The notes under the pieces were generated by a model that saw nothing but the letters and a program-made list of their open reading frames with translations, was not told the DNA's origin and did not search any database. The position numbers and the translations under genes were made by a program. Shown here one piece after another: positions 5,157-45,734 of a DNA stretch of 64,000 nucleotides (position 1 is the stretch's first letter; every line of letters begins with the position of its first letter). The DNA is from Gordius albopunctatus (lineage: Eukaryota), in assembly GCA_964276515.1 (NCBI GenBank), contig OZ193909.1, positions 13,640,001 to 13,704,000 of the forward strand. Direction: 5' to 3'.

Positions 5157-6694
5157 ATGAGTCCATCAATTCCTAATACAAACAAAACACCAAGTGTTTG
5201 GCCAACTTATAAAGGGGTTCAACAAAATCAAGTTAATCACACTAATGAGAAGCGCTTAGCCTCACTCAAAAGAAAAAATCTAGAGATCAATGAGCGTAAG
5301 CAACAAATAAAAATTTCTCTGGAAAATTTTGACAGCAATCTCTCCTCAAATATTGATGCAAGCATATTACAGAGGAAGCACATTTTTTTCAAAGATGAAG
5401 AAATTGTGAATGAATTTGATACTGCTCAGAAATATGTTTTAAATAAAAATGAAAATTCATCTCCAATTAAAAGTTTAAAAAAGAAGTTATTTATAGAAGA
5501 TGAAGAGTCAAGAACAAAGACAAATAATGATCAAATGTTATTTAAACCACAATTTGAAGGAAAGAAAGGAGAAAAATTGTTAAATCTGAGTTTAAAGTAT
5601 TTTTAATTATTCTTATATCTGTTGAATGAAGTTTTATTATAAATATTACATTAGTGTTGTGATTTTAATTCCCTTTTTTATATTTTAGGATTGGTCAGGA
5701 TCAAAGATTTATTTTGAATGAAAACTTTGTTGATAGTGGAGAATCTGATGGTGAAGAACGTTGTGAGATAAATGGAAAAAGGGTTGTAAATACTTTACGA
5801 AAAATGCAAGCTGATGGAGATGACATATCTATCAACGAAGAGATGGAAATTTATGAAAGGGCCCTACAATCAGCCACAACAAAACTTTTTGAACGCGGGG
5901 AAAGTCCAAAAAATTTAGAAGACATTGCGGATTATATACCCTCTATCAAGGGGCAAAAATATGAAAATAGTTCCTTACGTAATGACTATAATGGAATCTC
6001 GAGGTTTTTTAAAGATGTCCAAGCACCAAAAATAGCAGGGGAGGTAAGAAGTTGCTCCTCTATCATAGAAAGATTTGACCCAACTCGAGCCGATCACTTA
6101 GAAAGGTTTGAAATTAAGTCGACAATACCCGTGGAAAAGACACAATCTCCACCCAAAGAAAAAAAGAAAAAGACTGATAAAGTAATTGTTAAAACTTCAG
6201 AAATTAAAGTCGAATCTGATGAAAAGAAATATTATACGGTTTATCGCGATTTGAAAGGCGCTTTCGGTAATACATCCACCAGCTCATCCTTTACAATATT
6301 AAAGCCTCCCAATGACGTCTCTGTATCCGATGCTGCTCAAAAACCTGTTGAAAATGTGACCACTAAAATTTTTAATAAGGCTTTAGAATCGCATTTTTGT
6401 GAAGAAGAACGCTTTGTATCTCTTCCCACCCAAACCGAAGATGAATCAAATTTAACCGGCTCAAAAGGAGAATATAATTTTTTTATATCTACATCCGTTT
6501 TTGAAGACCCTACTTCGAACCTTAACGCGTTAGTTTCTAATTTTTGCCAAAGACCCAGCCCCAATGCAGATCCTGAAGCTTGGGAACGCAAAAGGGCCGA
6601 GTTATCGCATTTGTTTAAAACTAAGCGAAAACGTTATATACGCCACAAAAAATTCTCTTCACGCCGCTTACCCGCATTTGGAAAAAGAAACTAA
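5157..6694 (+). CDS. NOL8: Nucleolar protein 8-like (exons 5157-5596, 5689-6694), about 481 aa
   Basis: NEKRLASLK...KHIFF...LF...KPQFEGKKGEKLLNL|KIGQDQRFILNENFVDS matches the NOL8 core. RFDPTR..H and a basic W..KR..L C-terminus are also present. A 92-nt GT-AG intron joins ORFs 5157 and 5714 in frame. Confidence 0.85.
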
Positions 6695-7779
6695 TTGCTT
6701 TATGTATACCTATGTAGATGCTTTTTATTGTCTACGGTTTTATATTAAAAATAGGGGGCCGATGGTTTAATCAAAATGGAGGCTCTAGATCAGTGTAGAG
6801 CAGTGGATTATCTCTTTTGACATCACACTGGCTCGAAGTTTTATCTAATTAAGTCCATGTCTCAGATCCCTCATATGTTTATAAGGCATAAAATAAAAAA
6901 AATTATTCATAAATAAAACAAAGTAATGTAGTTGAAACGAATATATCAAGACAATATAAAAAAATTTACATGGTATAGTAAGTTTGTCTACATATGAATT
7001 GTAAGAGCACAAAATGGAACCGGGTGACAAGAAAACTTTAATATTTTCAAAAATAATAGAAATAGTAAAAAACTATACAACAAAGTATTTATAAAAATCA
7101 TTATTGCCACAACCCCGAAAAATCTTAGCCATATCTAAATTTATATCAGGAAAACAATCTAATTTATAGTAATTTGATCCCACAGTCGTGGAGTTTGTTT
7201 TGATTAGTTTCTTCCATCTTGACCAGGTGAGTGCCATATCTTGACTAATCTCTTTTGTTTTCATTACTTTATCGCCGGGGTCTTCCTCTCTTCTCCGCTA
7301 TCTCTATGTCAAGGACTTTTCGATTTACGTCATTCGTGCCCTTTCTTAGTATATGCCCATACCACCTAGCCAATTTTCGTTAATCATGTCCGCCATAGGT
7401 TGAATACCCATTTTTGTGATGAGAAAGACATTCGTCATATGGTCAAACTTAGTGTACCCCAAGCTCCATCGTATCATTCTAATCTCTGTGGCTTGTAATA
7501 GCTTTCCTTCTGTGGTGTTTAATGCCCATGTTTCACTTGCATATAGTAACACCGGTCTTACGATGGACTTGTAAGCTTTGCTCTTCAATCATATTGGCAT
7601 TTTCTTGTCGCACATTACAAGGGATATACTTTGCCATTTGAGACAACCTTTTTGGATCAGGGCATTGACTTCTGTTGCGCAACCTCCCTCTTCATGTAGC
7701 ATCGAGTCGAGGTATGAAAACCTTTCTACTTTAGGGGACTTTAGATGGTCATCCAGTGTGGGGCTGCCTATAACCAGAG

Positions 7780-9333
7780 TAGTGATGCGGAAAAACCGAG
7801 AAAAATCTCGGTCTCGTCTCGAAAAACCGAGACGAGAATTTGAAAAATGGAGTCGAGATCGAGACGAGAATTTTGATGTTGAGATGAGACGAGATTTTTT
7901 CGGCGAGATCTCGACTTTTTATTGATCGTTAGATTTTAGTTAATTATTGTGTATTTTAATTATGGAATATATTTGATATTAAAAAAATTCCTAAGTGTTT
8001 TAAATATTATACATTTTTGCAAAAAATTTAAAATTTGGCAATCACTTACCTTAATATTGTTAACCCCAGTGGGTATGTGAATAATTTTATAATATATTTC
8101 TCATATATAAGTATCCATAGCATTATTTAATATTACATAATTTTATGCTGAGAATGAGTTCTGATGGAATAGTAAATATTACTAAAGCATATTTGTATTT
8201 CGCAGTTACTCATCCTGCATGATGCGGTAATTATAAATTGGTGTTCAATCATTTTGAATAATTTTACAAGTTAAGCTAAGGTGGCTCGAGATTTTTGAGC
8301 ACCCGCCTAACGATTTCAAAAGTACAATAGAGTATTTTAATGACATCGTAATAGGTTAAATTTTAAATCATGAGTTTTTTAGAAGTTTATATGCTTTAAC
8401 TAAGTTCATTCAAATCTACTATAATTTCTATAATTGTAAAATATAAAATAAATATACAAACCTATACTGTATTCAATAAATAACTATTTCATAACAAAGT
8501 TAATTAGAATTGTAATGTAATTATTTGGAATATAAATTTTATTATAATGTTTTTGTCATACATATAAATCTTTAATTTAAAGTTTAAAACTTTATGTTCT
8601 TAATCCTATAATAATGCTGCTTTTATTGTACTTTTTACAACGTTTTAATTTGTGCAACTAATAATAAATTCTGTAAACAATAATAATATCATTAAAAGTC
8701 ACTCGCACTTTGTGGTTTATAGTGCTATAGTAAACATGCAATAAACACTATGGACTATAATTGATGATGGTAATATCAATGGACTTAAATGTTTACCTTA
8801 AATATGGTAAGGTCTACTTTGAAGCTTTAGCAAGAGTTAATAAAGGGTCTCAATTTGCTTAATTATGCAACTAAGTCAACTGTAGGCGAATTTATAATTT
8901 TCTAAGTCCATTTATAGTTGAGAGACACAGTTAATTTGGTACAAATGTTATAATCTGTTAAAAATAAAATTTAATTTTCTATATTTCAAATTTATTTATA
9001 GTTTTTTTAGTCTGTCTTTTCCATAGAAAATGTTATCTTTATGAATTAATTCATATCTTTATATTGTCAATAAAACGTAGGGTCCCGCTATATCTTCAAA
9101 AAGTTTGTCTTAAAGTTTTTCAAAAGATAAAAAAGTTTGCCATTGGATTTTTTAATAATTATTTAATATTTGTAATAAAACATAAAAAAATTTATTTCAT
9201 ATATATATTTTTTCTAAAAAAGTCGAGACGAGACCGAGATTTTTCTAGACCGAGACGAGATCGAGATTTTCGTAATCGCTCCCGAGACGAGACGAGATTT
9301 TGTTTTCGAGACCGAGACGAGATCGAAACACTA
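7780..9333. mobile_element. Non-autonomous hAT-like element with CGAGA subterminal repeats
   Basis: Termini TAGTG...CACTA. Perfect 8-bp TSD AACCAGAG at 7772-7779 and 9334-9341. Confidence 0.85.
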
Positions 9334-10364
9334 AACCAGAGCTGTTAAAGTTCATTTAGATATGAACTAGTTCAAGTTCATAGTTCAGTTGGAAAAAAAC
9401 GAACTAGTTCAGTTCTTAGTTCAAATTTTACAAAAAGAACTAGTTCAGTTCATAGTTCAGTTCATTTTTTTTATTATAGAATTTTAATCCGATCCTAGGG
9501 GTCTTTGAAAAACGTTTTATCTGATCCAAAATCAGTTTTTTGAATCTAAGTCCGATCAGCAATTTTAAAATTCTATGAAACAAATTTTTATTAATGATTG
9601 AGTTTAATTATTTAAACTTATTATTGTTTAATTTAAATCAGAAAAAGTCCATTATAAATTCTAATTTAATAAACATTTTTCATATACCAATATCGTATCC
9701 CTTGATACGAGTATATCCCCCTCCCCTCTTCCCATATTATTTTATACAAAGGGATGCCGCCACTACACATCTCTCACTTTCTAATTAATTTCAGTACGTG
9801 ACTTTCCCTTTAAAGCGGTTTAATTTCTAGTACGCGTATATCCCCCCCCCGACGCGCTTATATGTATTTGTTATTTCTCCCCCCGATATTATTATTGCAC
9901 GCGTCATTGAATTTGATAACGCGATTCGATTATTATTATAATTTTCCTTCTTGGTTTTATAATTAATAACTGAATGAAACAGGCATGTAAGGGTTAGTAC
10001 AATAAATTTAAGTATATCCTTATTCCGGCCCTATCCCCCCACCTCGTAATCCACCTATATCACCGCTCGTATATCTTCTAAAATAAAAATAGAAAAATAA
10101 TCCATCGTACGAATACGATAACCAACAAGCCTTTTTGTACAAAACTAAATCAGCTATAAAATTCTGAAAAACAGTTTCATTTAATAAAAAATGTTATTAC
10201 GTAAAAAAATTCAATGTGTAAAACTTTTATTTTTATTTCAAACAATATAATATATAACACCCTTGGGTAAACCTGCCCTGCTATATATGGTTGGTCACCA
10301 TTTTGTTTGTCAGATGGCATAATCTCATTAAATTCGTCCGTTTCTTTATATGTATCATAATAAT

Positions 10365-11078
10365 AAACTTGGGCCTTCGGCCCTCGTGGGAAGGAGGAGG
10401 GAGGAAGGGAAGGGAGAACTAGATTCATCTATACTCCGTATAAAAGTAGCATATTTGTTATGCAATTTATGGGCGAGAAAGGTGGGAAGGGGCGAGAATG
10501 CCTATAGACGGGTATTAAATGCAAAATAATTGGACTGACGGCCATAGGGTAATTATCAATGTTAGCTTAGCCTAATATACCAATTCAAAAGCAAAAAAAA
10601 ATTAAAATTTCGAATCACAATTTGGCCATTGGTCATTTTTTCCATTGGTCAGTAGCCAGCGGACGGTCAAAAAGTCATATTATCAGTGGCATTAACAAGA
10701 ACAAAATATTAATTTAATTTAAAAAAAATTTGTCCTCTCCGGGGATTGAACCAGCAAGTCAGAAAGTTGAAAGACGATGTAAGAACCTTGGAGGACTGAC
10801 GGGCATAGGGAAATTATCAATGTTAACCTAATATACCGATTCGAAGGCTAAAAAAAATTTCGAATCACAATTTGGCCAATTTTTTCCATTGGTCAGTAGC
10901 CAGCGGACGGTCAAAAAGTCATATTATCAATGGTATTAACAAGAACAAAATATTAATTTAATTAAAAAAAATTTGTCCTCTCCGGGGATTGAACCGGCAA
11001 GTCAGAAAGTTGAAAGACGGTGTAAGAACTTGGAGGACGGACGGACAACAAAAAGCGAGCCCATAAATTGCATAGCAA
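10365..11078 (-). mobile_element. DINE-1/HINE-like (Helentron-associated) non-autonomous element with about 2 central repeats
   Basis: Inverted subterminal repeats at 10455-10474 and 11059-11078, a GTCC microsatellite next to the 5' subTIR, a ~240-bp internal tandem duplication, and a terminal GGGCCGAAGGCCC hairpin at 10371-10383. Confidence 0.65.
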
Positions 11079-11499
11079 TTAATAAATAATTACAATTGAT
11101 AATAGAAATCAGGGGAAAGTAGATTGGAATTGGACTTGAATAAAATATTAGTTTCAAAATTATCATTTAATAAACATGAACTAATAAAATAGGGTTGGCA
11201 TGTGCATTCAACAAATATTTCTATATGGAAATTCTAATTAAACACACGATATATACTTTATTAGAAATTAAATATTTAACGACAAAGTTAGTTATAAATG
11301 GGAGGCAATTTTTTGTTATATAAAATGGGACCATAAACATTAATATCATAGTTTAGTTTTCATTATAATGATTGTTGTTATATGTGTATTTATATTTGAC
11401 ACACTGAATTTGATATAAATGTTATAATTCGCTAAAACTAAAAAAATTTATATTCTACACTTTACGCTTATTTATAGTCTTTTTTTATATTGCACTTTC

Positions 11500-11788
11500 T
11501 ATTTTAATTTAATATTGGATCTATCTTTATATTGTCATGACACGTCGGTATTAAAATTTTTGAAAAATAAAATAGTTTGCCATTTCTGATTTTTCACTTA
11601 TTTTATAATTTTATAACACCAAGAGAAATTTCTATTTAGTATAACATTTTTTTTGAAAAGTCGAGACAAGTCGAGAAATCTCTCGAGACCGAGATTTTTT
11701 TAGACCGAGACGAGATCGAGATTCTCATAATCGCTCCCGAGACGATATTTTCTTTTCGAGACCGAGATGAGACGAGATCGAAACACTA
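11500..11788. mobile_element. Right end of a second CGAGA-family hAT-like element
   Basis: Similar to 9050-9333 and ends with the same CGAGATCGAAACACTA. No left end found. Confidence 0.7.
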
Positions 11789-14539
11789 AAAACAATCAAA
11801 CTCGGCTTATAAAATCATTTTAAAGAATAATTTTTGAGATTAACTAGTTGATTTATATTGCAAAGTTCAAGTTCAGAATATTAAAAAAAGAACTAGTTCA
11901 TAGTTCACGGTGTAAAAAAAGGAACTAGTTCAAGTTCATAGTTCAGTTCAGAAAAAAGTGAACTAGTTCCTAACAGCTCTACCTATAACGTACATTTCCA
12001 TTTATACCGTTTTTCGATAGTTGAACATTAAACCATATCCAGCTAAGCGTTTTGACCACTTTTCGGCTTCTTCGAATACTTTCTCCTTTGTTTCCTCGCA
12101 TAGTACTATATCATCGGCATATGGCATACACCATGGCGAGGGCTTTTGAATGTCTCTCGTTATCATGTCTAAAGCTATATTAAATAAAAGGGGACTAAAA
12201 GCAGATCCTTGATGTAGTCCAATTTTAACCCGAAAATGTTTAGAGTCTCTAACTGTTGTTCTAAAGCAAGAGTTGGAGGCTTCATAAATATTTTCTATAA
12301 GCAGTATATATACGTCAGGGCTCAGGGATATTTTGTTTTCTCAGGCACCACCATGCTAAATGGTTGGGGACCGTGTCATAAGCTATCTCCAAGTCGATAA
12401 AAACCATATGTAGGTCTTTCCTGTTTTTATCATACCTATCCAACATTTGTCTTAGTGCGAAGATTGGGTCGATTATGGATTTGCCAGCCACAAATCCGAA
12501 TTGATTAGCCAATATTTCCACGTCGTTTTTCAGCCTTGTAAATAAGATCCTTTCCAAAACCTTTAAGGAGTGGCATGTTAGCTTGATACGTCTGCAATTG
12601 CCTCAATCCTAAGGATCTTCTTTGCCTTTAAATAATGGTATAATCGTGCTTGCCCTCCATTGATTAGGAATTCGCTCTTCTAGCAATATCTTGTTAAGGA
12701 GGTTCGCATGGTGGAGACTCCCTCTTCACGACATCCGAGCAATGCTTCCATAGATATTCCATCTGGGCCATTTGCTTTTTATTTTTGCATCTTGTTTTCT
12801 GTCCTAACTTCATCCAACTGAAAGAGTTCGACCATACTTATATTTGGCTCAATTTTTTGAAGGGAATCCTTGTCATTTGCAATGTTCATAAGTTTCTTAA
12901 AATATTCTTTCCACCATTTCCTTCGGCTTGAATAAGGTTTGACCCTTCTCGTTTTTGACTATTTTAAGAACTCCGACATCGCCTTCTCCCTTATATTGGC
13001 CAATTTGTACATAAGTCTATCGCCCCCTTTGTAATCCAGTTTGTTTGCCATCTCGGTGTATGCGGCATTCTTCGCTATTGCAACGGCCTTTTTTGTGGCC
13101 CACTTTGCGTCTCTATACTCTTGATAATCCCCCGATTTTTTTGATTTATGCCACAGTCTATATAGATTTTTCTTTCTTTCGATGAAATCTTTAACCGATT
13201 GATCCCACCACCATAGCTCCCTATTCATAGCTTTACCTCCTTTGGTCTGTCCTAGAGCACGAATCGCTGTTTCCTTAATGTCCTTAGATAGCGTTTCCCA
13301 ATCGTCATCTACGTCCCTTTGCAAGTCCCTTGCACCCAAGAGTGAGGAGTCATTTTGATGGTATTCTTTGTTCGTCGACGTATCCTTTGGCCTTTCGTAT
13401 CAATTTCGAGGTTCATAGATCTTTCTTCTTTCGGGAAATACTCTTCTGTCGAGATCCATAACAAGGGGACGATGTTGCCTGGCGAATTCATTTCTCGGTG
13501 TTACTTTGCAATCCTTGATACTGCATAAGTCATTTCGTCCTTTCCACTTCTATAAGTCACAATATGATCTTCGCTCTTTTGAAAATAGATGTTAACGATC
13601 GCCATGTCATATGCTTGGGATACTTGGAGAAGTTTTTCCCCTTCTTTGTTATTTAGACCATGCTCATAGCCTCCATGATTGCGTTCATACACGAGGCGAT
13701 CTTTCCCTACGTGAGTGTTGAAATCTGCCCCAATAATTAGACTTTCTTCCTGTCCTATTCCTTGTATTTCTTTTTCCAATGAATCGAAGAATATGTCTTT
13801 CTCTGATTCCATAAACCCAATTTGGGAAGCATACGCGCACATGACGGTTAGGAGGCCCTCTTGATCTGCAATCTTCACCCACATTAGCCTGTTGGAACAA
13901 CGCTTGACTTCCACCACCTTGTCCTTGAACAATTCGCTTAGAAAGATACCGACCCCGTTTATACGATTTGATGATCCACTGTAGAATAGTTTGTAGCCTT
14001 CTCCTAACTCCCGAGCTTTGGTTCCGTTCCACAGTGTTTCTTGTATGCAGGCGATGTGTACCTTTCTTATTTTTAGCATTTGTGCGACCCCGAAGCTCTT
14101 CCCCGTCCACATTCACACATTCCAGCACGTTATTCGCATTATTTCCACAAATAATTTCCTTAACCGACTTCGTTGTGAGTGGGGCAGTAACCCTAGTGTA
14201 TTTTTTACATTGCACGGGCGGGGTATGCAGTGCGCGTCGTTTGTGGAGGACGCCATAGCTTTCTCTTGTAAAATCTTATTTAAAACTATCATGATTTTGG
14301 AGTTGGTATTTATAGCCGGTTTCCGACCTGACGCCAACCCTCCACTTTTTGCACACGGACTTGAGACCATTGTAGGTAGTGTTATAATTATTAATCACTA
14401 TAATAATTCATTCAAATAAAGTTAGTAATTAAAATCTGTGATATCAAGTAGTTTCATAAATGGCACTTCAATTTGTCAAATATATTTTACAAACCGCAGA
14501 TTATTCAAATTTTATAAAATATATTAACTCGATAGGTAA

Positions 14540-18260: not shown

Positions 18261-20465
18261 CTAGCTGACCCAGCAAACGTTGTTTTGCTATATACATTAT
18301 TTCTAGAAAATACTATAGGCGATGTGCATGCTCATCCTTATGCCTCGATCATATAATGAGCGATTAAAACATAATTGTCCTATGGGAAATAATTCACTAA
18401 TTTAATGTAGGAAGAATTATTAATACGCTAAATATAAACACAAAAAGCAAAGTACTTAACATCAAATTTTTTATACTTTGCTTTACACATTTTGCCATAT
18501 AAATATACTGTCAAATAAATTAATACATGCCTAAAGAATTATTTAATTTGTAATTGCCAAAGGTTTGTTTTTTTTATTAAAGGTGTAAAAAAACCTTTTT
18601 TGGCCCTACCGCAAAATCACGATTCTGGCAAATGGCCGTTTTCGGACTTCAATCAAAACCCCAACACCCCCCCCCCCCACCTTAAAAATCTGTTTTATTT
18701 TTGCGCCTAAACATATTTTAGCGCGTCAAGCTTTTCACTTATTTCGGCAAACTACAATTCAGCTTACATCTGCTTACAAACTTGAGGTATATCATTGGCC
18801 GCCAACTGAGCTTTATTGCAATAGAGTCTCATTGTTATCATGTTTAGCTGATATATTGTGTAGTTTAAGCCATCAGGTACCATTATAGACGTAGCCCGAC
18901 CCTCTACCCTCAATTGGCCCTCCGTTAATTTTTACTATTGCTTAAATTATATAGGAAATCCATGCTCCTATACGAAGAAGAGCTTAATAAGGCCACACAA
19001 AGACAGCAAGTAGACAGGGGTTTAAGGGGCAGAGCCCCTTGAGTAAGATTTAGAGGGGCAGCCCCAACCGGGGTACAGGGGTGAAGCCCTTTGTTTGAAT
19101 CTTCTTCTTCTTTATCAGTTATTTGGTCCCACATTGGTGGGGTTAGTTTTGATAAGTTTCTTGCATCTTGACCGGGTGAGTGCCATGTCTTGACTACTCT
19201 TTAGTTTTCATAACTTTATCGCCTTGCCCGTTCCATGTGACACGGGGTCGTCCTCTTACTTTCTTGTCCAGCACCTCCATGTCGAGTACTTTTCGATTTA
19301 GGTCTATCGTGTCACCACCTTAACCGATTTTTGTCAATCATGTCCGCCATAGGTTGAGTATTCATTTTTGTCATGAGAAAGTCATTCGTCATATGGTCGA
19401 GCTTAGTTTACGCCAAGCTTCACCGTAGAATTCTCATCTCTGTGGCTTTTATAAGCCACCCTTCCCTGGTGTTTAATGCGGATGCTTAATAATCAATTTT
19501 TAATTCCTTAAATAATTTATTATCATAATGTCAAGTTCGACAAAAAATAAGGTTTTTTTAAACTCACTTTGTTGTTCACATGTATTCCATCTTTATTTAG
19601 TTATTTTAATAACCCACAGTCCAGGTTTAAGATGATCCATAAAATGACCACTGTTTTAGGTTAATTTGTATGAGTAGTACGGCCCGAGGCGAAAAGCCAT
19701 TTTTATTTTTGTCCCGAATCGAGCCCGGAGCAACATCGTTAATCTCGCTTATTTCCGAAACATGCGAATATTCCCTAACTTCCTAAGCAAATCCTCCTTT
19801 TTGTTTAAAATATGCCTAGATATACAGCATTAAAAACTGAGATATTATGAGGGGTCGTAAAAAATCATTGCCCACAAACCTTACTTTGGTCAATAGGCTA
19901 TCAGTGTACTCAGATAATTCATAAAAACTTAAAGCAACCGGTAGGAGTTAGGGGCGGAGTCCTTCTTAGAGGTCCGAAGAACTGAGATATATCAACATTT
20001 ATTGGCACTTTGTTAAAAGTATTTTCATTTTTCTCCTTATTTAACGCGCAAAAATGACAAAATTCGATTTTTATTTATTTAGCCACACAGGAGGGGACAC
20101 GACCGTCATATAATAATAATAATTGACGTGTAAAATAAGCAAAAAAATGACTTTGATATTTATTGTTTCAAAGCGCGTAAAAAGTTTAAATTTTCCGCAA
20201 CACATGCCTACTGCATTTATCACACTACCTACACGATAGATACGCAGTATACGTCATGAGGTTGCGTTTGAGTGACATTTTAGTAAACGTCAAAACGTAT
20301 AAGACTAAATAACCTGACCGTCTTGTGACTTAGAAATTTGGAATATAGTTAAAAACCTAGGCTCAGACCTACCAATCATTCGCAGAAATTTCCATCTAAA
20401 TCGGTCCAGCCGTTTCGGAGAAGTTTAACCACAAACACCGTGACACGGGAATTTTATATATTAGA
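18261..20465 (-). mobile_element. Non-autonomous Helitron
   Basis: On the minus strand it starts 5'-TCTAATATATAAAATTCCCGTGTCAC and ends with the hairpin AGCAAA-ACAACG-TTTGCT then GGGTCAGCTAG-3'. Inserted between A and T with no TSD. Confidence 0.8.
19099..19485 (-). mobile_element. 5'-truncated RTE LINE 3' fragment inside the Helitron
   Basis: Homologous to 7170-7530 and 40980-41340, and ends in a (GAA)n tail on the minus strand. Confidence 0.85.
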
Positions 20466-31900: not shown

Positions 31901-34900
31901 CGTCCACCAAGTTATTTACACCAGCTTCCCGACTTGCAGGTTGTGGATCGAGACCCGGAGAGGACAAAATTTTCTTATTTTTATTTAAATTAATATTTTG
32001 TTCTTGTTAATGCCATTGATAATATGACTTTTTGACCGTCCGCAGGCTACTGACCAATGAAAAAATGACCATTGGCCAAATAAATCCAAATTTTTCGTTT
32101 TTCGTTTTTGAATTGGGTAACATTGATAATTGATATGGTTCCCTGTTCCTCTCCAAAGGCTTATGCCTCTATTTAATGTGGGTTTGAATCCCGGCGAACG
32201 TTCTAAATTGCAGGTTCGAGACCCGGAGAGGACAAATTTTTTTATTTTTTTTTAAATTAAATTAATATATTGTTCTTGTTAATACCATTGATAATATGAA
32301 TTTTTGACCGTGTTCTGGCTACTGACCATTGAAAAAATGACCATTGGCAAATTGTGTTCGAAATTTTTTTTTCGTTTTTGAATTGGTATATTAGGTTAAC
32401 ATTGCTAATTACCCTATGCCTCTACTGATATGGGTCCCTGTACCCCTACAAAAGCTTATGCCTCTATTAATGTGGGTTCGAATCCCGGAGAGGACAAAAA
32501 ATTTTATTTTATTTTTAAATTAAATTAATATATTGTTCTCGTTAATACCATTGATAATATGACTTTTTGACCCTCCGCAGGCTACTGACAAATTGAAAAA
32601 ATGACCCTTGGCCAAATAAATCGAAATTTTATTTTTTATTTTTTTTAAATTAATATATTGTTCTTGTTAATACCATTGATAATATGACTTTTTGGCCGTC
32701 CGCTGGCTACTGACCAATGAAAAAAAGACCTTTGGCCAAAATATGAATAGAAATTTTTTTGGTTTTTTTTTGACTCGTATGTATTTATAGACCATCTCTT
32801 GGTACTGACCGATAAAAAAATGACCATTGGCCAAATTGTTTTTAAGTAAAGGCCAGTGGTTCTTTTAATATTTTATTTTTATCATAAATATTTTTCACTA
32901 ATAATGATACCATATCTGTTTTTAGATTATGTTTAGTTTCATATACTAAATATATAAATAATTTCCATTATTTTAAAGTCTTTTATTTAAATTTAATTAT
33001 TAAAACACATGTGTCTAGTTAATTTTATACCCCGACCCTCAAAATTTTTTGTAAAATTGTGGGAAACATTTATGTTATTAAACTTAAATTAGAAGAGTTA
33101 GGTATATTAGCTATGTAAATAGTGTTTTAATTGCTATGCAATTTATGGGCTCGTTTTTTGTTGTCCGTCGTCCGTCCGTCGTCCACCAAGTTATTTACAC
33201 CAGCTTCCCGACTTGCAGGTTTGGATTCGAGACCCGGAGAGGACAAAATTTTTTTATTTTTTTTAAATTAAATTAATATTTTGTTCTTGTTAATACCATT
33301 GATAATATGACTTTTTGACCCTCCGCAGGCTACTGATCAATGAAAAAATGACCGCTGGTCCAATAAATCGAAATTTTTAATTTTTCGTTTTTGAATAGTT
33401 TAACATTGATAATTACCCTATGCCCTCCCCTACAAGGGCCTATGCCTCTATTTATATGGTTCCCTGTTCCCCTCCAAAGGCTTATGCCTCTATTTAATGT
33501 GGGTTTGAATCCCGGCGAACGTTCTACATTGATGGTTCGAGACCCGGAGAGGACAAAATTTTTTATTCTTTTTTAAATTAAATTAATATATTGTTCTTGT
33601 TAATACCATTGATAAAATGACTTTTTGACCGTGTTCTGGCTACTGAACATTGAATAAAATGACCATTGTCCAAATTTTGTTCGAAATTTTTTTCTCGTTT
33701 TTTTTGACTCTTATGATTATTCCTGTTAATACCATTGATAATATGACTTTTTGGCGGTCCGCTGGCTGCTTACCAATGGAAAAAATGACCATTGGCCAAA
33801 GTGAGCATCAAAAATTTTTTTCCGTTTTTTTGGCTATCATTGACTTATAGAGTATCTGCTGGGTACTGACCAATGGGAAAAAATGATCATTGGCCAATTT
33901 TCGTTTTTTTAGACTCGTATGTATTTATAGACCGTTGTAATGATCTGAAACGTCGACATTCCCCCCCCCCAGAGATGCATCAAGATTTGAAGGATTTGAA
34001 AGATTACGAAGCATCTACTACAATTGCTTGGGTCACCAAAATGTTTTTAGACAAAAAATTTACGGTTCACCCAAAATTCGTTAAAGATTTAGAGAAGTAT
34101 TATGCTGCAAAAACTGAATCCCTCAATTTCGAAGAGGAAAATGTCGAGACAGCTAGAAATATCATAAATACATGGGTTCTTGACCAAACAGCTTAATTGA
34201 CCGTGTTTTATCTGCACCCCTACCTAATAGTTTAAACAGAATGTTATTACTAAACGTTTTTTGCTTTAACGCCAAATGGGAAGTTCCCTTTAAAAAATCT
34301 TTAACTATTTGGAATGACACCTTTCTCGCTGCTCAAGCAAATATCATAGTCCGAGTACCATCTTATATCAGCTATTTTACCTATTTTTGTTTTAATAGTA
34401 ATTTAATAAATACATATTTCTCAATGTTAGGCACCTTTTAAAATTAAAAAAATAATATTTGTTATCGCTAAATTAATTTTGATAGGTTATTTATTAACCC
34501 TAATTAATGCCCCCCCCCCAAAACATACTCTCGAGAACCCGATTTCCCCAATAGCTACATTGAAATAAAAATAGATCGAAAAAACTCTCGAGTACCCCCT
34601 TCCCCCAATAACTTAATCTTACTTTAATTACTCAACCTTGGAATTTAATGGGTTTTCTGAGGGAAACGGATAAATCGTATAGAGAGGATGACTTTGTACA
34701 TTTTTAAATACTCATTTCTTTATTTCCAGTACAACATCTACAAACTTAATCATTAACTATTAATACAGCGCGCATCATTTTAAATTCACAAAAGGTAATT
34801 ATTAATTTAATTTCAATAAAATAATTTGTAATTTAAACTTATTTAAGATTTCGAATCTTCTAGAAAGATAATCTTTTTACGCTATTTAGATTAAATTCAT

Positions 34901-38556: not shown

Positions 38557-41500
38557 CAATTTCCTTATTTCTAATATAATGATGCGCTAAAGGACGGTGT
38601 TATTTTTAGAAGTTGTAGCTAGTATAAAATTTGTTTCTTCTGTATAAACAAATTCTGAATTGTACTAAGCTTGAAACACAGACTTTATATTATATTTTGT
38701 GATGCCTCGTTTGTAAGTACAGTTAACAAATTATCAGTTATCAGTGGTTATCATAATAAAAGACAGACTCAAAATTACAATTTGGCAAAAGAGATGTTTT
38801 TATAATTATATTCAAACTAAGGTGAAAATACGACTCCAACTCTGTTAGCAAGCCCGACTGATGGTCTTATTCACAATATATATCAAGATTTACCATCCGG
38901 TTATGTTCACACAACCCATTTGCAGCAATCGGGCGCCCCCGTATGTAATAACAAATGGAAATTTATGTATTAAAATTGCGTTTATATATTAATATCTATT
39001 TATTAATTTTTCCTTTTTAATTTACATTTTTACTTTACAAACTTTATGTTTAAAAAGTTCTAGATGACACCCATATGAATTTTAAGTGTATAAATTTGTG
39101 TCAGCCAACTAATCTATCTAAGGCAATCAGTCGCTTATGTTTAATTTAAAGCACGTTTAAAAAATGTCTAACTGTTTGAGGTTGATTAGAAAAATTCTAG
39201 GTTTGAGGTATGCTTTAAGGGCTGCATATGACATCTCCTCTTTTTTATACTATAAACCTTTATAAACACAATATGTACAACGGTGTATTATTTTTAACAT
39301 ACTTACAAATAATTTAGCAGCAATTACAATGCTTATACATATACACAATGACAGACACTTATCACCCCATTGCCCTTAGAGGTCTTTGCTATAGTCCCGC
39401 AACACAATATCAAGGATTCAATAAATCCCGCGGAACAAATAAATAATTACATGAACCTGGATTACACAATAAATAATCGACATTCTATTATTACGCAACA
39501 TACCTCCACCCAAATGAAAGTTATTCAATTAGACACCAACAAAACCTTCTCCCCGCCTAAGCAATCTCATACGCGTGTGAAAACAAATGCAAATAACCTT
39601 AGATGTCTAGTAAAGTTGTCAGGCAACGGAACATTGAACTCACAGTATTTAAATAGTTTATCGCTTAATCGCATATTGACAATGCCAACCGATTCCGTCC
39701 ATGATAAACATCTTCAAAGGCATACAGTCAACAATCCTATACCAACCATTTCTAATCATTCTAATAAAATAATCTCCGAGTAATTTATTAATTACATTAT
39801 ATCTCTTCCCACCAATGGTTGGAGCATTCCCACAACATTTTAGAATCACACTTATTCGAAGTTGAATGGTACAAATCTAAAAATGTGAGACATCTCCTAT
39901 AATAATTGGTGGGAGAACTATGTAAATTCATTTGATATACCTGATCCAACGCTTTATTTATAATTAAGAGTTCATCGATTTACTCAAATAATTCCACTAT
40001 TGGATGCACACATAATGGAGTAATTTTAGAAGAATCTTTGATTTTTCACAAAAATCCTCAAAGCAATTTGACTGAAGTTTTAGATGCACTGCTTGGTCCA
40101 CGACATTGCAATTCGGTTATATCGTGCGTTGCAGCAAATAGTTCAATTATCGATAAAAAAATATTGCCTTAAAAGCAACATGATGGGTCAGGTATGATAA
40201 GCAATCATCCTATATATGATCAAATATGTGAATTTAGTAAATTGTAGGATTTATATTATCTGCGGACCAAGCGAAAACTTGGCTTAAAAGGAAACAGGCA
40301 TGGTTAACATATCCCAGGCATTATCTCAATATAGGTAGCTACCCCATCTTAAAATGTACATAGATAGTTCATCCTCGTATAGCCCTGACCATTAATAAAT
40401 GCAGCTTTGGATAAACCCCAATCCGTCCATTTATGTTATTTTTACATTTATCATATTGACGAAATAATGACTGTGATAGAAAAGTGTAAAAGTAACCTCG
40501 GCAACTAATTTATACCAACAAACACCTCTCGTTTTGTCATTCCACGTATAAACTATAATAACTTATGTTTAAATTCCATATGCTGATAATCGGCAAATGT
40601 TTACGTTATACATTATTATATAAATCGTTATATTTAAATAATTTACTGATTAATGTATATGTATAAATGCTTATGGGCCAGTTTTAGTCCGATGTTAATT
40701 ATATATTCACTATTATTATCATAAAAATAACGTTATTGAATTTGTTGTATGAAGATTTAATAAATTTGTTGTAATATTAAAGACTTTATTATTTATCACT
40801 TTAATAGGATCAAATTTAATGCTCTAAAAAGCATTTTCGACAAAAAGCGTTTTATGTATAAAAACTGTGTGTTTTAAGACGTTTTCTTGTCACTTCAAGA
40901 ATTATATTGTATTTTGGTGTATTTAAAATACTTTAAATGTATAATAGTGTCTAAAAAACATTTACATATAAAAGAATCTTTTCTTCGATCCTTTTCTTCT
41001 TTATCAGGCATTTAATCCCACAACCGTGGGGTTTGTTTTAATGAGTTTCTCCCCTCTCAGTCCGGTAAATTTCATGTCTTGATCAATCTTTTTCATAAAT
41101 CTGTCGACTTACTCTTTCCACGTCACTTGAGGTCCTATTCATGCTTTCCTCGTTCACTCCATGTCAGTACTTTTCGATTTAAATCATTCGTTTTCTTATT
41201 TTTGTTAATCGTGTCCACCATAGGCTGAATACTTATTTTTGTCATGAGAAAGTCATTCGTCATATGGCCGAGATTAGTATACCCCAAGCTCCACCGGATC
41301 ATTCACTCCCTGGCTTGTTGTAATAGCTTTTATTCCGTGGTAGTTTCACCTCCATAGAGTAACACCGGTCTTCAAACCATTTTTGCATTTTATTGTCGCA
41401 CATTGCACCGGATATACTTCGCTATTTAAGCCATCCTTTTTGAATCTAGGCATTGACCTCTGTTGCGCAACCTCCTTCTTGGTGTAGCATCGAGCAGATG

Positions 41501-41615
41501 TATGTAAACATGTCTATTTTGGGGTTGGTTACGCTGGTCAGTTTCATTAGGGGCTTTTATTAACGCGTACTCTACAGTCTACACTATAAACTAGACGCGA
41601 TATAATGGGGACTAA

Positions 41616-41675
41616 GAGGTATAAACAAGAGAGGGCAGTATGCGTAAACACGTAAAAAGAAAAAGCGAGCGAATG
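41616..41675 (-). repeat. 60-bp terminal repeat (3' copy)
   Basis: Exact reverse complement (60/60) of 44226-44285. Confidence 0.97.
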
Positions 41676-41697
41676 CGATGGTGTCTCTTCTTTGTGT

Positions 41698-41704
41698 TTA
41701 TATA
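41698..41704 (-). promoter_or_regulatory. Putative TATA box of the RT element
   Basis: TATATAA on the minus strand begins 29 nt upstream of the first base of the repeat (CATTC, Inr-like). Confidence 0.6.
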
Positions 41705-41712
41705 GCCCAGTG

Positions 41713-43780
41713 TCACCTATCTATGGGGGTTTCTGTTCCGTTTTCCTCTATGGTTTGGCTGGAATTTTCGTCTTCCCAAAAACCCAAATCGACTTGTTCC
41801 TCGATATTCTCCAGTTCGGGGATTGAGACGCCTTGGGGTGGTATGTTTGTGAACGTGCTAGGCACCGAGTATCTTTCCGGCGGAAATCATGTCCGTGATT
41901 GCATGTCGGCCGGGTTGTTGGTAGATGAGATCCATATTAGGTTGAAGTGCAATCGTATCAAGTGTGAGACGTCTTAAGCCGCCACAAAGTGGGCGATTAT
42001 GCTCTCCAGGACCGGGGAGTTCGAGCCCCCCTTTAGTAGGACGAAGTATGCCGTGGTCGAGTATGTCACGACTTTCGGGTATCTATATCCGTTGTAGAAA
42101 GCGTGGAGGTAGGTATATATATTGTTGCTATCGTCTCCGTGGCTGTGATGTGTCCTGCATGGACCCAAGGCAACCCGATGGCTTCTGCTGCATTTTCGAA
42201 CGATATTGAGAAGTTTTGGTCGCCCCACGTGATCCCGATGTGGCTGTCGGAGGCATCGGCGTATATCGTAGTGTCGTGGTTTTGGTACAGTGGTATTATT
42301 TGCGTTGGGACGGCCAGACACCCCTGTAATTTAGCCTGTGCGGCTGGTCTGTTGTGCGTGGTAACGTTCTTGTTTGCCGCGATGGTTTAGAATGTGCTGA
42401 ATATCCTCGACATTCCCATGAGGTTATAAAAGAAATAGTTCAGCACTCCGAGGGCTTCCAGTAGCGAGTAATCGACCGGGGGTGTTCTTGTTGACAGGAA
42501 TAAGAACAGGATATCTGCTGCATAGGTGAGCCTCCTTTGTATATCGGGTGAGCATCTGATTGAGTGTATTTCGAAATCTAAGACAAGGCCCAGATATTCT
42601 ATCGATGTTTCTGGTATAAAGGACGATTTGCTTACGTTAATGGTTAGGCCCCAATCGTTAGCCATCTCAGCTATATTGCCCAAGTCCTCCATGACATCAT
42701 TGTCTTCCTCAGAAAAGATAAGGATATCGTCTAAGTAGAGGTTATAATTGCATTTGGTGACCGCTTTCTTTACCAGGTCGGCCACTATTGTTTGTAGTAC
42801 GTAGGGGGAGAAGGATGCCCCCATCACTAGTACTTTATATTGGTACATTTTGTCCCGCCATTTGTACCCGCAGTAGCGTTTTGCGTTCTTGTGCAAGGGT
42901 ATACTGAAGAATGCAGCCTTGAGGTCTATTTTGGCTGCATAGTTGGCGACTGCTAGCTTCTTTGCTGTTAGTGGGATGGTCGCCAGTTTGACAGGGAGAT
43001 GCCTAAAATTCTTTGAGGCGTCGGATAGGACAGTGATTATGCCAGCGTCCACATTTTTATTTGCTATGAAGAAAGTTTCGGAGGTGATGGCGAGCGCTTG
43101 CGTCTCGGAGACAACCCCCGTTTACTTCATAGTCGTCAAGTAGGCTGGACTCCCCTTGAGATTTTTTTATGCCTATGGGGCCTGAACAGGCCTTCATTCC
43201 TCCTGATCTTAGGGAGGTCAAGGGGTGGCTTGAAACCTTCGAAGGCCACCTTCAGCGTAAAAGGTGACATAAGTGGGTGCGAGTTCAATCTCAATGTTTT
43301 AATGTCGAGTGGCCCTGTCGGTTTTGTTGTGGAGCCCGGGTTACCCCATAGGAAAATGGCCTTGTGGTCATTCACAAGGTTCGGGATATTCCCCGAGCCT
43401 GCGTCGCCGCCGAGGGATTCGTCGTCGTTGGGGTTGATCCGGTCGCCCACTTCGGTGGGTGGCCTTGGGTATTCCCAAGGCGACAAAGGAGGGGGCTGCG
43501 CAGGCCCTTCATTGTTGTCGTCGTTTACCGGGTGCGCTGGAGAAAAGATCTGGCTGCGGGTCTCCCTTAAAAAGTTTTTAATTTGTTGCCACCACCTGGG
43601 AGAGCCCTGATCTTTATCTCCGTTGAGAGTCGGTTCGCCATTAGGCCAGCACTCCCACCAGTCGACGGTGTCACGGATTAGTTTACGAACGCGGGGCAGG
43701 GCCGCGTTCTTTTGGAAGTGTCGGCTCGGCTTTTTGCCTCTGCCCCTGCCAGCTTCTGGAAAAAACGACTTTTTGGGGAT
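41713..43780 (-). pseudogene. pol: reverse transcriptase + RNase H, with stops and frameshifts
   Basis: RT: KIDLKAAFFSIPLH, YQYKVLVMGASFSPYVLQ, YLDDILI, IEYLGL. RNase H: IYADASDSHIG, HITATET, VVTYSTTA, WISSTNNPADMQSR. An acidic tail ends just before the TATA box. Confidence 0.9.
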
Positions 43781-44226
43781 TTAGGCATTGTGACCTCTAC
43801 GTCCTTAAATCCCATATCGGTTAGCCAGGTTGTATCGTGTTTGGCGGCTGTTGCCCAATTGTATTTGATGGCCAGGCAAAGAGTTTTGAGTTGCTTGTCG
43901 TGGGCAGCTAGCACTTCGATTGGTGAAGTAGGAAGGCATACTTGGGACATCAAGATGGCGTATTTAGCCTCGTACTTATCGCGTTTCTGTACGCGTTGAT
44001 CAGGGTCTCTTAGCAGCTCTTCGAGGCCCTGAGTGTGATTAGGTATCTCTTCGCATAAGAACGCCGGGGTCTTTGGCGGTTCAAGCGACGGTACTATCTG
44101 CACCGTTGATGACATTTGTAGAGGTGGTGGTATAGGATGAACCACCTCCGTCTGGCTTTGTGACAGGGACCCCACGATTGACATAGAGTTTTCGAGCATT
44201 GTTCTCATGGCGTCAATCTGAAGTTC
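43678..44226 (-). CDS. gag/core-like ORF1, main part
   Basis: Open frame ELQIDAMRTMLENSMSIV...LAIKYNWATAAKHD directly upstream of and overlapping pol. Function is inferred from position only. Confidence 0.55.
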   Translation of the reverse strand, partial: ELQIDAMRTMLENSMSIVGSLSQSQTEVVHPIPPPLQMSSTVQIVPSLEPPKTPAFLCEEIPNHTQGLEELLRDPDQRVQKRDKYEAKYAILMSQVCLPTSPIEVLAAHDKQLKTLCLAIKYNWATAAKHDTTWLTDMGFKDVEVTMPKSPKSRFFQKLAGAEAKSRADTSKRTRPCPAFVN

Positions 44227-44285
44227 ATTCGCTCGCTTTTTCTTTTTACGTGTTTACGCATACTGCCCTCTCTTGTTTATACCTC
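44226..44285 (+). repeat. 60-bp terminal repeat (5' copy, within the inverted segment)
   Basis: Exact reverse complement of 41616-41675. Confidence 0.97.
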
Positions 44286-44321
44286 ACTTTCTCCCTAAAA
44301 TTGACCTTTTCTCCGGGATAC

Positions 44322-44468
44322 ATGCCGAGAAACAAAGACAATAACGATGAAGACCAAGAAGCCAACCGCCTTTCCCTGTGCCCTGTTAGACCAGGGGTTC
44401 CCGGTGCGAACTCAGCGGAACTGGTAGCTCAACTAGTGGAGATGCAAAGAGAGCAGAACCGAGCGAGA
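44322..44468 (+). CDS. Probable N-terminus of ORF1 in inverted orientation
   Basis: ATG 36 nt after the repeat gives MPRNKDNNDEDQEANRLSLCPVRPGVPGANSAELVAQLVEMQREQNRAR, which is cut off at the RTE junction. Confidence 0.55.
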
Positions 44469-45734
44469 CCTTTTTGCGGCTCTCTTTGCTACCCTATACT
44501 CTTGATAATCCTACGAATTTTTTGATTTATGACATCATATATAGAATTTTTTTCTTTCGGTGAAATCTCTAATTGAATGATCCCACCACCAAAGTTGCCT
44601 ATACATAGCTTTGTATCCTTTGGTCTGTCCTAGAACCCAAATCGCTGTTTCATTTATGTCCTTAGTTAGCGTCTCTCAATCGTCGTATACGTCCCTTTGC
44701 AACTTCCTTGCATTCAAGAGTGAGGACGCTTTTTGATGATATTTATAGTTCGCTGACCTATCCTTTAGAATTTCAAATCAAATTCGAGGTTATTAACTCT
44801 TTTTATTTCAGTAAACACTTTTCTTTCAAAATCCATCATAAGTGGGTGATGGTGCCTGGCGATTTCCTCTCCCGGTATAATTTTCCAATCCTTGATACTC
44901 CATAAGTCTCTTAGCCTTATGGGCAGATAGTCAATTTGACTAAAATGCTTCCCATTTATATAAGTCGAATATAATTTTTTCGTTGATCGCCATGTCGTAA
45001 GTTTGGTAAACTTGGAGAAGTTTTTCCTTTTCTTTGTTCTTCAGACCATGCCCATAGCTTCCATGATTTCGTTAATAACTGAGGCTATTTTTCCCTAGGT
45101 CGGCGTTGAAATCCGCCTCAAAAATTAGCCTTTATTCCTGTCCTATTCCTTGTATTTCCTTTTCCAATCATAGAATATGTGTTTCTCTAATTCCATACAC
45201 CCAATTTTTGAAGCATAAGCACACATAACGGTTAAAGGCCCCCATAATCTGCAACCTTCACCCACAATAACCCGAGGAACAACGCTTAACTTCCACAACC
45301 TTGTCTTTAAACGATTCGCATAGAATGATACCGAACCCATTTCTACGATTTGATGACCCACTGTAGATTAATTTGTATGCTTCTCCTAACTCCCAAGCTT
45401 TGGTTCCGTTCCACCTCGTGTGGGCAGGCGATGTGAGACTTTCTTATTTTAGTATTTCGACCTCGATGCTGTTTCCCATCAATATTTCCCCATTCCAGCA
45501 TGTTATTCGTATCCTTCCCACAGCTAATTTCCTTGTTGTAAGTGGGGCAGTAACTTTAGTGTATTTTTCACATTGCGGAGGACGCCCTAGTTTTCTGTCG
45601 TAGAATTTTGTTTGAAACTATCATGATTTTGGAATTGGTTTTTATAGGCGGTTTCCGACCTGTCGCCAACCCTCCACTTTTTGCCCACAGACTTGGGGTT
45701 GGGACCATCGTATTTAGTATTAAAAGGATTTTTA

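Follow-up and report, generated by a model that had tools for sequence, protein, structure and literature searches.

We found that a decayed retroelement copy in the genome of Gordius albopunctatus carries the first 241 nt of the element inverted relative to a collinear sibling, so that a direct terminal redundancy takes on the appearance of a pair of inverted repeats. The element belongs to a multi-copy family, and we think it probable, by a modest degree, that this copy was made from a full-length, terminally redundant RNA and that the 3' end of the cDNA folded back onto a site in ORF1. The window is the whole stretch of DNA that was analyzed, 64,000 nt of contig OZ193909.1 (GenBank assembly GCA_964276515.1, positions 13,640,001 to 13,704,000 of the forward strand), and all coordinates below refer to it.

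The element spans about 2.9 kb and forms a GC-richer stretch within AT-rich DNA. Both of its flanks are RTE-like LINE sequence in the same sense as the insert. The features of the locus are as follows.

40978 to 41552, minus strand: 3' portion of the RTE-like LINE that hosts the insert, comprising its post-RT region and its 3' end, with a 69-74% match to 7158-7751 and 19089-19474; the alignment fades at about 41553.
41553 to 41615, minus strand: tail of about 60 nt after the 3' copy of R, not RTE sequence, with a predicted hairpin and AATAAAA at the RTE junction.
41616 to 41675, minus strand: 3' copy of the 60-nt terminal redundancy (R), a 100% pair with 44226-44285.
41697 to 41704, minus strand: TATA box (TATATAAA); its first T lies 30 nt upstream of the A in the CATT that opens R.
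41713 to 43312, minus strand: decayed pol, with RT (YLDD), RNase H and a short acidic tail (Pfam RVT_1, E 4e-25; tblastn).
43136 to 43780, minus strand: middle open frame of 214 aa, with a basic and acidic/proline-rich stretch and then the N-terminal lead of pol.
43678 to 44228, minus strand: downstream piece of ORF1, which keeps its native orientation; the sibling contig runs collinearly through it.
44226 to 44285, plus strand: 5' copy of R, which starts at the predicted transcription start and has no TATA box upstream.
44226 to 44466, plus strand: the 5' 241 nt of the element's RNA, in inverted orientation, delimited by the sibling joint 44228->44466.
44229 to 44235, plus strand: inner arm of the end-to-end complement, TCGCTCG.
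44286 to 44321, plus strand: leader.
44322 to 44466, plus strand: upstream piece of ORF1, with its ATG at 44322; the sibling contig covers 44261-44466.
44460 to 44466, plus strand: outer arm of the end-to-end complement, CGAGCGA.
44469 to 45730, minus strand: 5' portion of the RTE-like LINE, covering its endonuclease region, with a 77% match to 13090-14392.

By BLAST, the right RTE flank began at 44471; a letter-by-letter comparison with the window's other RTE copy moved its start to 44469 and probably to 44467. Measured on that other copy, about 1.1 kb of the host RTE, comprising the RT domain, is missing between the flanks. Neither poly(A) nor a target-site duplication accompanies the insert (the longest word common to the vicinities of both outer junctions was 6 nt and lay off the junctions), and no microhomology was found where the flank meets the inverted segment. 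The other RTE copy is itself interrupted by a 4.2-kb nested insert (7767-11989) with an 8-bp duplication at 7767 and 11982 and CGAGACGAGA-rich repeats, possibly a hAT-type element, which lies within about 15 nt of the RTE position that matches the 3' junction of the focal insert. The window also holds tandem units of about 125-310 nt at 31945-33882 and 10593-10971 (65-95% identity, inverted copies 21-23 kb away), in which ARAGORN reported no tRNA gene, and a 341-aa open frame at 5669-6694 with no Pfam match above threshold.

The inversion was established with sibling contigs from two sequencing runs of one study, X1 and X2, which may include the source sample; a third set, X3, had a small share and was not used as evidence. 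In the window, the copies of R at 41616-41675 and 44226-44285 form an inverted pair. One 724-nt sibling contig in X1 and one in X2, about 87% identical to the element, cover 43775-44228 with 59 other letters; they then switch strand and run from 44466 to 44261, with 27 other letters and 2 gaps. This joint between opposite strands, one of the two joints listed, has a shorter side of 206 letters, and 5 letters fit both sides. Since the sibling is collinear through ORF1, it is the focal copy that is inverted, and its apparent 60-bp inverted terminal repeat (ITR) is a direct terminal redundancy. A true ITR element was ruled out by the same joint. An assembly artifact is unlikely given the contigs with 0 differences at the junctions: one X2 contig (44256-44682) bridges the outer junction, and the inner-junction contigs (43725-44255 in X1 and 43732-44255 in X2) extend 30 letters past 44225, one letter below the formal bridging rule of 31. 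The 3' junction, at about 41553, was not covered among the contig pieces listed. Other copies of the family are evident from variant positions: another letter is present at 43078 in 30 X1 and 19 X2 contigs, and at 44409 in 19 and 14. Within the upstream ORF1 piece, 44374-44427 was matched at 80% likeness by far more sibling contigs than neighboring stretches; it has no stable fold (z +0.8).

These results largely bore out a first-pass annotation made from the letters of the window. It had stated that the right repeat is not terminal, and 181-183 nt of non-RTE DNA do follow the repeat before the RTE match begins (at 44467-44471), with a plus-strand frame that opens at 44322 with MPRNK. It had further held that the inversion splits ORF1 and that both repeats are natively direct, and had named sibling copies as the check; that check was run, and the contig found in X1 and X2 joins the ORF1 pieces collinearly, switching strand at 44228/44466, and places the repeats in direct orientation. 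The exact join in the proposed re-inversion of 44226-44468 was misplaced by 2 nt per side. The claim that ORF1 on the minus strand begins abruptly at 44226 failed, because the minus frame remains open to 44253 and the junction lies inside microhomology.

The two ends of the flipped piece are complementary to each other over 7 nt, a result reached in 44 of 20,000 shuffles. The complement is the closing stem in the predicted fold of the flipped segment, and the fold of the whole segment is no better than that of shuffles (z -0.1). Positions 44226-44228 also fit the collinear sibling. As the sibling joint thereby adds them to the common stretch, the complement measures 7 nt and may reach 10; the extra 3 nt depend on where the joint is placed, and the letters reported to fit both sides number 5, not 7.

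The order of the RNA would be R-leader-ORF1-pol-TATA-R-tail, a terminally redundant layout downstream of a TATA box that we read from DNA alone, with a predicted transcription start. On the minus strand, TATATAAA stands upstream of the left R copy only. Two X2 sibling contigs carry a TATA box equally far upstream of the repeat, with different letters in between (among 14 of 59 loose ends listed). This conserved spacing supports the predicted start and makes an RNA-derived, full-length insert likely; the earlier claim that the insert starts at the predicted transcription start and lacks the upstream TATA box held. There is no TGG in the leader (44286-44321) and hence no TGG-type tRNA primer site. 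No epsilon-like fold was detected in the 5' segment (z -0.1 and +0.9), and no Rfam match rose above the gathering score. Inside the element, no exact direct pair exceeded 10 nt.

The tail was compared with RTE sequence, for which 1,168 of 2,000 shuffles scored as well, with a B1 copy of a split repeat (299 of 300 shuffles) and with an ICR-like match (42 of 300). An origin of the tail as an RTE remnant, a B2 repeat or an ICR partner was therefore not supported by the shuffle scores. The tail has no direct or inverted partner in the element or the window, and it folds as a modest hairpin (z -2.4, 4 of 200 shuffles). Beyond their 60 nt the R copies diverge, and a simple circular template predicts otherwise unless the 60-nt tail is foreign. 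They are identical to each other even though pol has 4 stops and 2 frame changes; with decay estimated from 3 stops at about 5% (range 1-16%), the chance of an identical pair is 0.001 (up to 0.26). R is perhaps regenerated in each round, by strand transfer or via a circle, and the identical pair fits such regeneration while a defective genome was carried along. Gene conversion between the inverted copies could be an alternative source of the identity.

The coding part of the element is partly recognizable. The downstream ORF1 piece had no match to Pfam or to a hepadnavirus core profile, and a single-sequence AF2 model of ORF1 was uninformative (pLDDT 45). The middle frame likewise had no Pfam match and none among the 226 candidates of the homolog search; its last part aligns to P0156/P0160. 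In-frame stops at about 43123, 42389, 41976 and 41889 interrupt pol, as do frame changes near 43160 and 42110; 8 nt separate the pol stop from the TATA box that follows. Pfam gave no match to an integrase, protease or recombinase in the 8 element frames (recombinase searched to E up to 1), a motif scan of this copy for a tyrosine recombinase gave a single match, inside RT, and no methyltransferase was found in this copy. P0002-P0004 had no Pfam match beyond RVT_1, and so no integrase or protease.

The closest RTs come from Gordionus sp. m RMFG-2023 (XP_065317776.1, XP_065315139.1 and CAK9296138.1; 41-44% identity, E 1e-45 to 1e-28). These three proteins stood well above the next matches among 1.84 billion representatives, and a profile search added six more proteins from the Gordionus genome. 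By tblastn, the window pol aligns to the Gordionus proteins from their start through the end of RNase H. In the two longest, little sequence follows RNase H, and the methyltransferase of the DIRS-like matches is missing; DIRS-like RTs, at about 25-35%, made up most of the phmmer matches. A metagenome scan with at least 120 loci gave no member of the window clade among the matches listed, and viral-contig scans gave only the Ty3-like loci L001 and L021 and, for proto-nackednavirus, none.

We built a tree of 41 rows chosen from about 350 proteins and loci, with group labels assigned in this analysis. It contained the unbroken RT piece from the window, 3 Gordionus proteins, 8 hepadnaviruses, 8 further RT-RNase H proteins that lack a methyltransferase, and 11 DIRS-like, 1 Ngaro-like, 6 Ty3-like and 3 metagenome rows, three of the rows being long, and no HEART, nackednavirus, proto-nackednavirus or VIPER rows. 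The window and Gordionus RTs formed one clade (100/100), basal on the hepadnavirus side of a 96/87 split and opposite DIRS and Ty3. The AU test gave a weak rejection of grouping the window clade with DIRS (p=0.032 for a single clade with the 13 DIRS/Ngaro-like rows, 1 of them Ngaro-like and none VIPER). One clade with hepadnaviruses alone was not rejected (AU p=0.29), which does not in itself show such a clade, and other methyltransferase-less RTs were nearer to hepadnaviruses than the window clade (88/77). The element is likely a distant relative of hepatitis-B-type viruses. The tree also brought out a set of unnamed RT-RNase H proteins whose sequence stops directly behind the RNase H domain (P0031, P0059, P0068, P0111/P0153, P0140, P0158, P0180 and P0193); for P0031, P0111 and P0153 the contig measures 2.3-2.7 kb. 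They sit nearer to hepadnaviruses than the window clade and are a possible HEART-like pool.

A structural model of a Gordionus relative (pLDDT 77.5) was ordered only from about residue 40, the first 37 aa being disordered. In a fold search with this relative, an unnamed 634-aa protein came first and the HBV P model second of 500, with caulimovirus RTs close behind; hepadnavirus and caulimovirus polymerases had about equal scores and were not separated by the search.

According to our model, the element would have been transcribed from a template in which the TATA promoter stands on the 5' side, ahead of R, and the RNA would have been reverse transcribed up to its first base, by the family's RT or by that of the RTE, which are indistinguishable here. 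The cDNA end would then have paired over 7-10 nt with the internal site and primed the second strand, leaving a loop of about 240 nt; once the loop was opened, the linear DNA would have been end-joined into a broken RTE copy with the loss of about 1.1 kb. The insert starts within 3 nt of the predicted start and without the TATA box, which points to copying from a full-length RNA. The 7-nt end complement, the absence of poly(A) and of a target-site duplication, and the RTE sequence lost favor cDNA snap-back or break-repair capture over textbook twin priming. Snap-back after full-length cDNA, with the target joined to antisense sequence, has been described for R2-mediated insertion (PMC11371274), and we infer that it is the simplest account of the end complement. 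The mechanism is drawn from one insertion and from one sibling contig, present in two runs of the same study. The R...TATA-R layout further suggests that the promoter may be regenerated by strand transfer across R or via circular DNA, by analogy with pararetroviruses and LTR elements. As there is no integrase, capture is the likely route of the family into chromosomes.

Twin priming in trans by RTE (LINE) proteins, with two cDNAs from two target ends annealed at a short complement, would produce exactly the geometry seen: the flank meets an internal position of the RNA, and microhomology links the 5' end of the RNA to the internal position that comes next, as in the model of PMC2912911. The insert also sits in a same-sense RTE copy, and RTE relatives are abundant in the runs. 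Nevertheless, the poly(A), the target-site duplication and 1.1 kb of the target are missing; the junction between flank and inverted piece lacks the microhomology that 5'-inverted L1s show most at this place, and trans-mobilized elements have few 5' inversions (both according to PMC2912911). The 7-nt complement, predicted by cDNA snap-back but not required by twin priming, would be left as a coincidence, and we consider twin priming unlikely here. The first-pass annotation had combined a full-length RNA origin with an inversion of the twin-priming kind. The origin is likely, as judged from the start at the predicted site and the TATA spacing in siblings; twin priming was not established, given the missing poly(A), duplication and flank microhomology and the target gap. 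A further account places the inversion in DNA, after an uninverted insertion, by recombination or template switching between the 7-nt inverted arms. These lie exactly at both ends of the flipped 241-nt piece, and the final sequence would be identical. However, the insert would have to begin 3 nt into R and the 7-nt arms would then have to mediate a rare rearrangement, the account would still have to assume an insert that is RNA-derived and begins at the predicted start, and no pre-inversion allele was seen among the two joints listed, which leaves this course of events very unlikely.

Two other readings concern what the element is. It may derive by internal deletion or splicing from a tyrosine-recombinase retrotransposon of the Ngaro, PAT or VIPER type, with R lying within A and the tail being B2. 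Such a derivation would explain the divergence of R after 60 nt and the AATAAA tail, the bulk of the phmmer matches are DIRS-like, and VIPER-like RNase H is described as grouping with hepadnaviruses (PMC6681497). We regard it as improbable in view of the lack of a B1 tail copy (299 of 300 shuffles) and of any recombinase match in 8 frames at E up to 1, of the 8-nt distance from the pol stop to the TATA box, and of the AU test (p=0.032, from a tree without a VIPER reference). An endogenized, non-enveloped hepadnavirus-like virus of proto-nackednavirus grade, captured from pregenomic RNA, would account for the size of about 2.9 kb and for the short terminal redundancy downstream of a TATA box, which has been described for RTPV (PMC12691608). 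It would agree with the place of the RT on the hepadnavirus side of the 96/87 split, with a hepadnavirus clade that was not rejected (p=0.29) and with the rank of HBV P in the fold search. Against this stand the lack of a terminal-protein or core profile match (best E about 3), of an ordered domain of terminal-protein size before RT in the Gordionus model, and of an epsilon-like fold or Rfam match, as well as YLDD in place of YMDD, the nearly equal scores of caulimovirus RTs in the fold search and the closer position of other methyltransferase-less RTs to hepadnaviruses (88/77); we think such a virus a quite improbable source. Finally, and speculatively, the element might represent an undescribed episomal, capsid-forming, integrase-free lineage at the base of HEART and hepadnaviruses. 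It would do without terminal protein and tRNA primer, pairing between the initial 10 nt of its RNA and the ORF1 site would prime the second strand, and chromosomes would be reached only by accidental capture, so that the flipped copy would be a frozen intermediate predating protein priming. We hold this to be a long shot.

The preferred reading, a copy of full-length RNA whose cDNA folded back, can be set against known systems. In arrangement, the element would work like a pararetroviral or LTR-type genomic RNA (R...promoter-R) without integrase. Tested defining features of the DIRS order, of LTR retrotransposons and of Blubervirales (terminal protein) were not found, and we therefore file the element under none of them. 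With the DIRS order, it has in common ORF1 and an RT/RNase H with a DAS motif, the lack of protease and DDE integrase, and a window arrangement that mimics ITRs; however, the focal copy has no tyrosine recombinase, ICR, B1 repeat or methyltransferase, and its ITR is an inversion product. The split direct repeats of DIRS follow the order A1...B1-A2-B2 (PMC6681497); here an A-like pair is present and a B1 copy of the tail is not. Unlike LTR retrotransposons (Ortervirales), the focal element lacks DDE integrase, protease and tRNA primer site. Blubervirales resemble it in size, in a TATA box followed by a short terminal redundancy, in a pol ending after RNase H and in having no integrase, but no terminal protein, core motif, YMDD, epsilon or DR1/DR2 was detected in the window element. 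A terminal-protein profile from 10 hepadnavirus loci reached a best E of 2.4-3.2 over 72 pieces, and a core profile from 19 loci had no match among the 72 pieces, a comparison to be read with the fact that proto-nackednavirus cores are only about 11% identical (PMC11551314).

HEART elements, described as the nearest nonviral kin of hepadnaviruses (PMC12440569), are, like the window element, RT elements of invertebrate genomes on the hepadnavirus side. Their mobilization is described in the same source as "not yet resolved." Inspection by eye of the seven Ixodes HEART RTs in data set S6 (PMC12691608) showed YIDN or HLDN with PFG in every one, in contrast to YLDD with MG in the window RT. The Gordionus proteins, compared here at the protein level, share with the window element the start of pol, the end at RNase H, the short tail and the absence of a methyltransferase. 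The inversion itself is of a type already known from L1 and R2. As in L1 twin priming (PMC2912911) and R2 snap-back, which follows full-length cDNA (PMC11371274), the flank is joined to antisense 5' sequence and there is microhomology at the inversion junction; unlike in 5'-inverted L1 and R2 insertions, the passenger is a non-LINE retroelement with no poly(A) or target-site duplication and with a 1.1-kb target gap. Our literature searches gave no account of this lineage or of its R...TATA-R layout; the original HEART paper (Gong and Han 2018) and Ostertag and Kazazian 2001 may bear on its novelty.

For annotation, the focal copy is a caution, as a 5' inversion makes such a copy resemble an ITR-bearing DIRS element. 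The genome has dozens of sibling contigs, which makes the termini, circles and insertion signatures of the family directly testable. What the copy records is a concrete and full RNA layout, from R through ORF1, RT-RNase H and TATA to R, for a lineage without integrase that is apparently undescribed and that branches close to the root on the hepadnavirus side of the RT tree.
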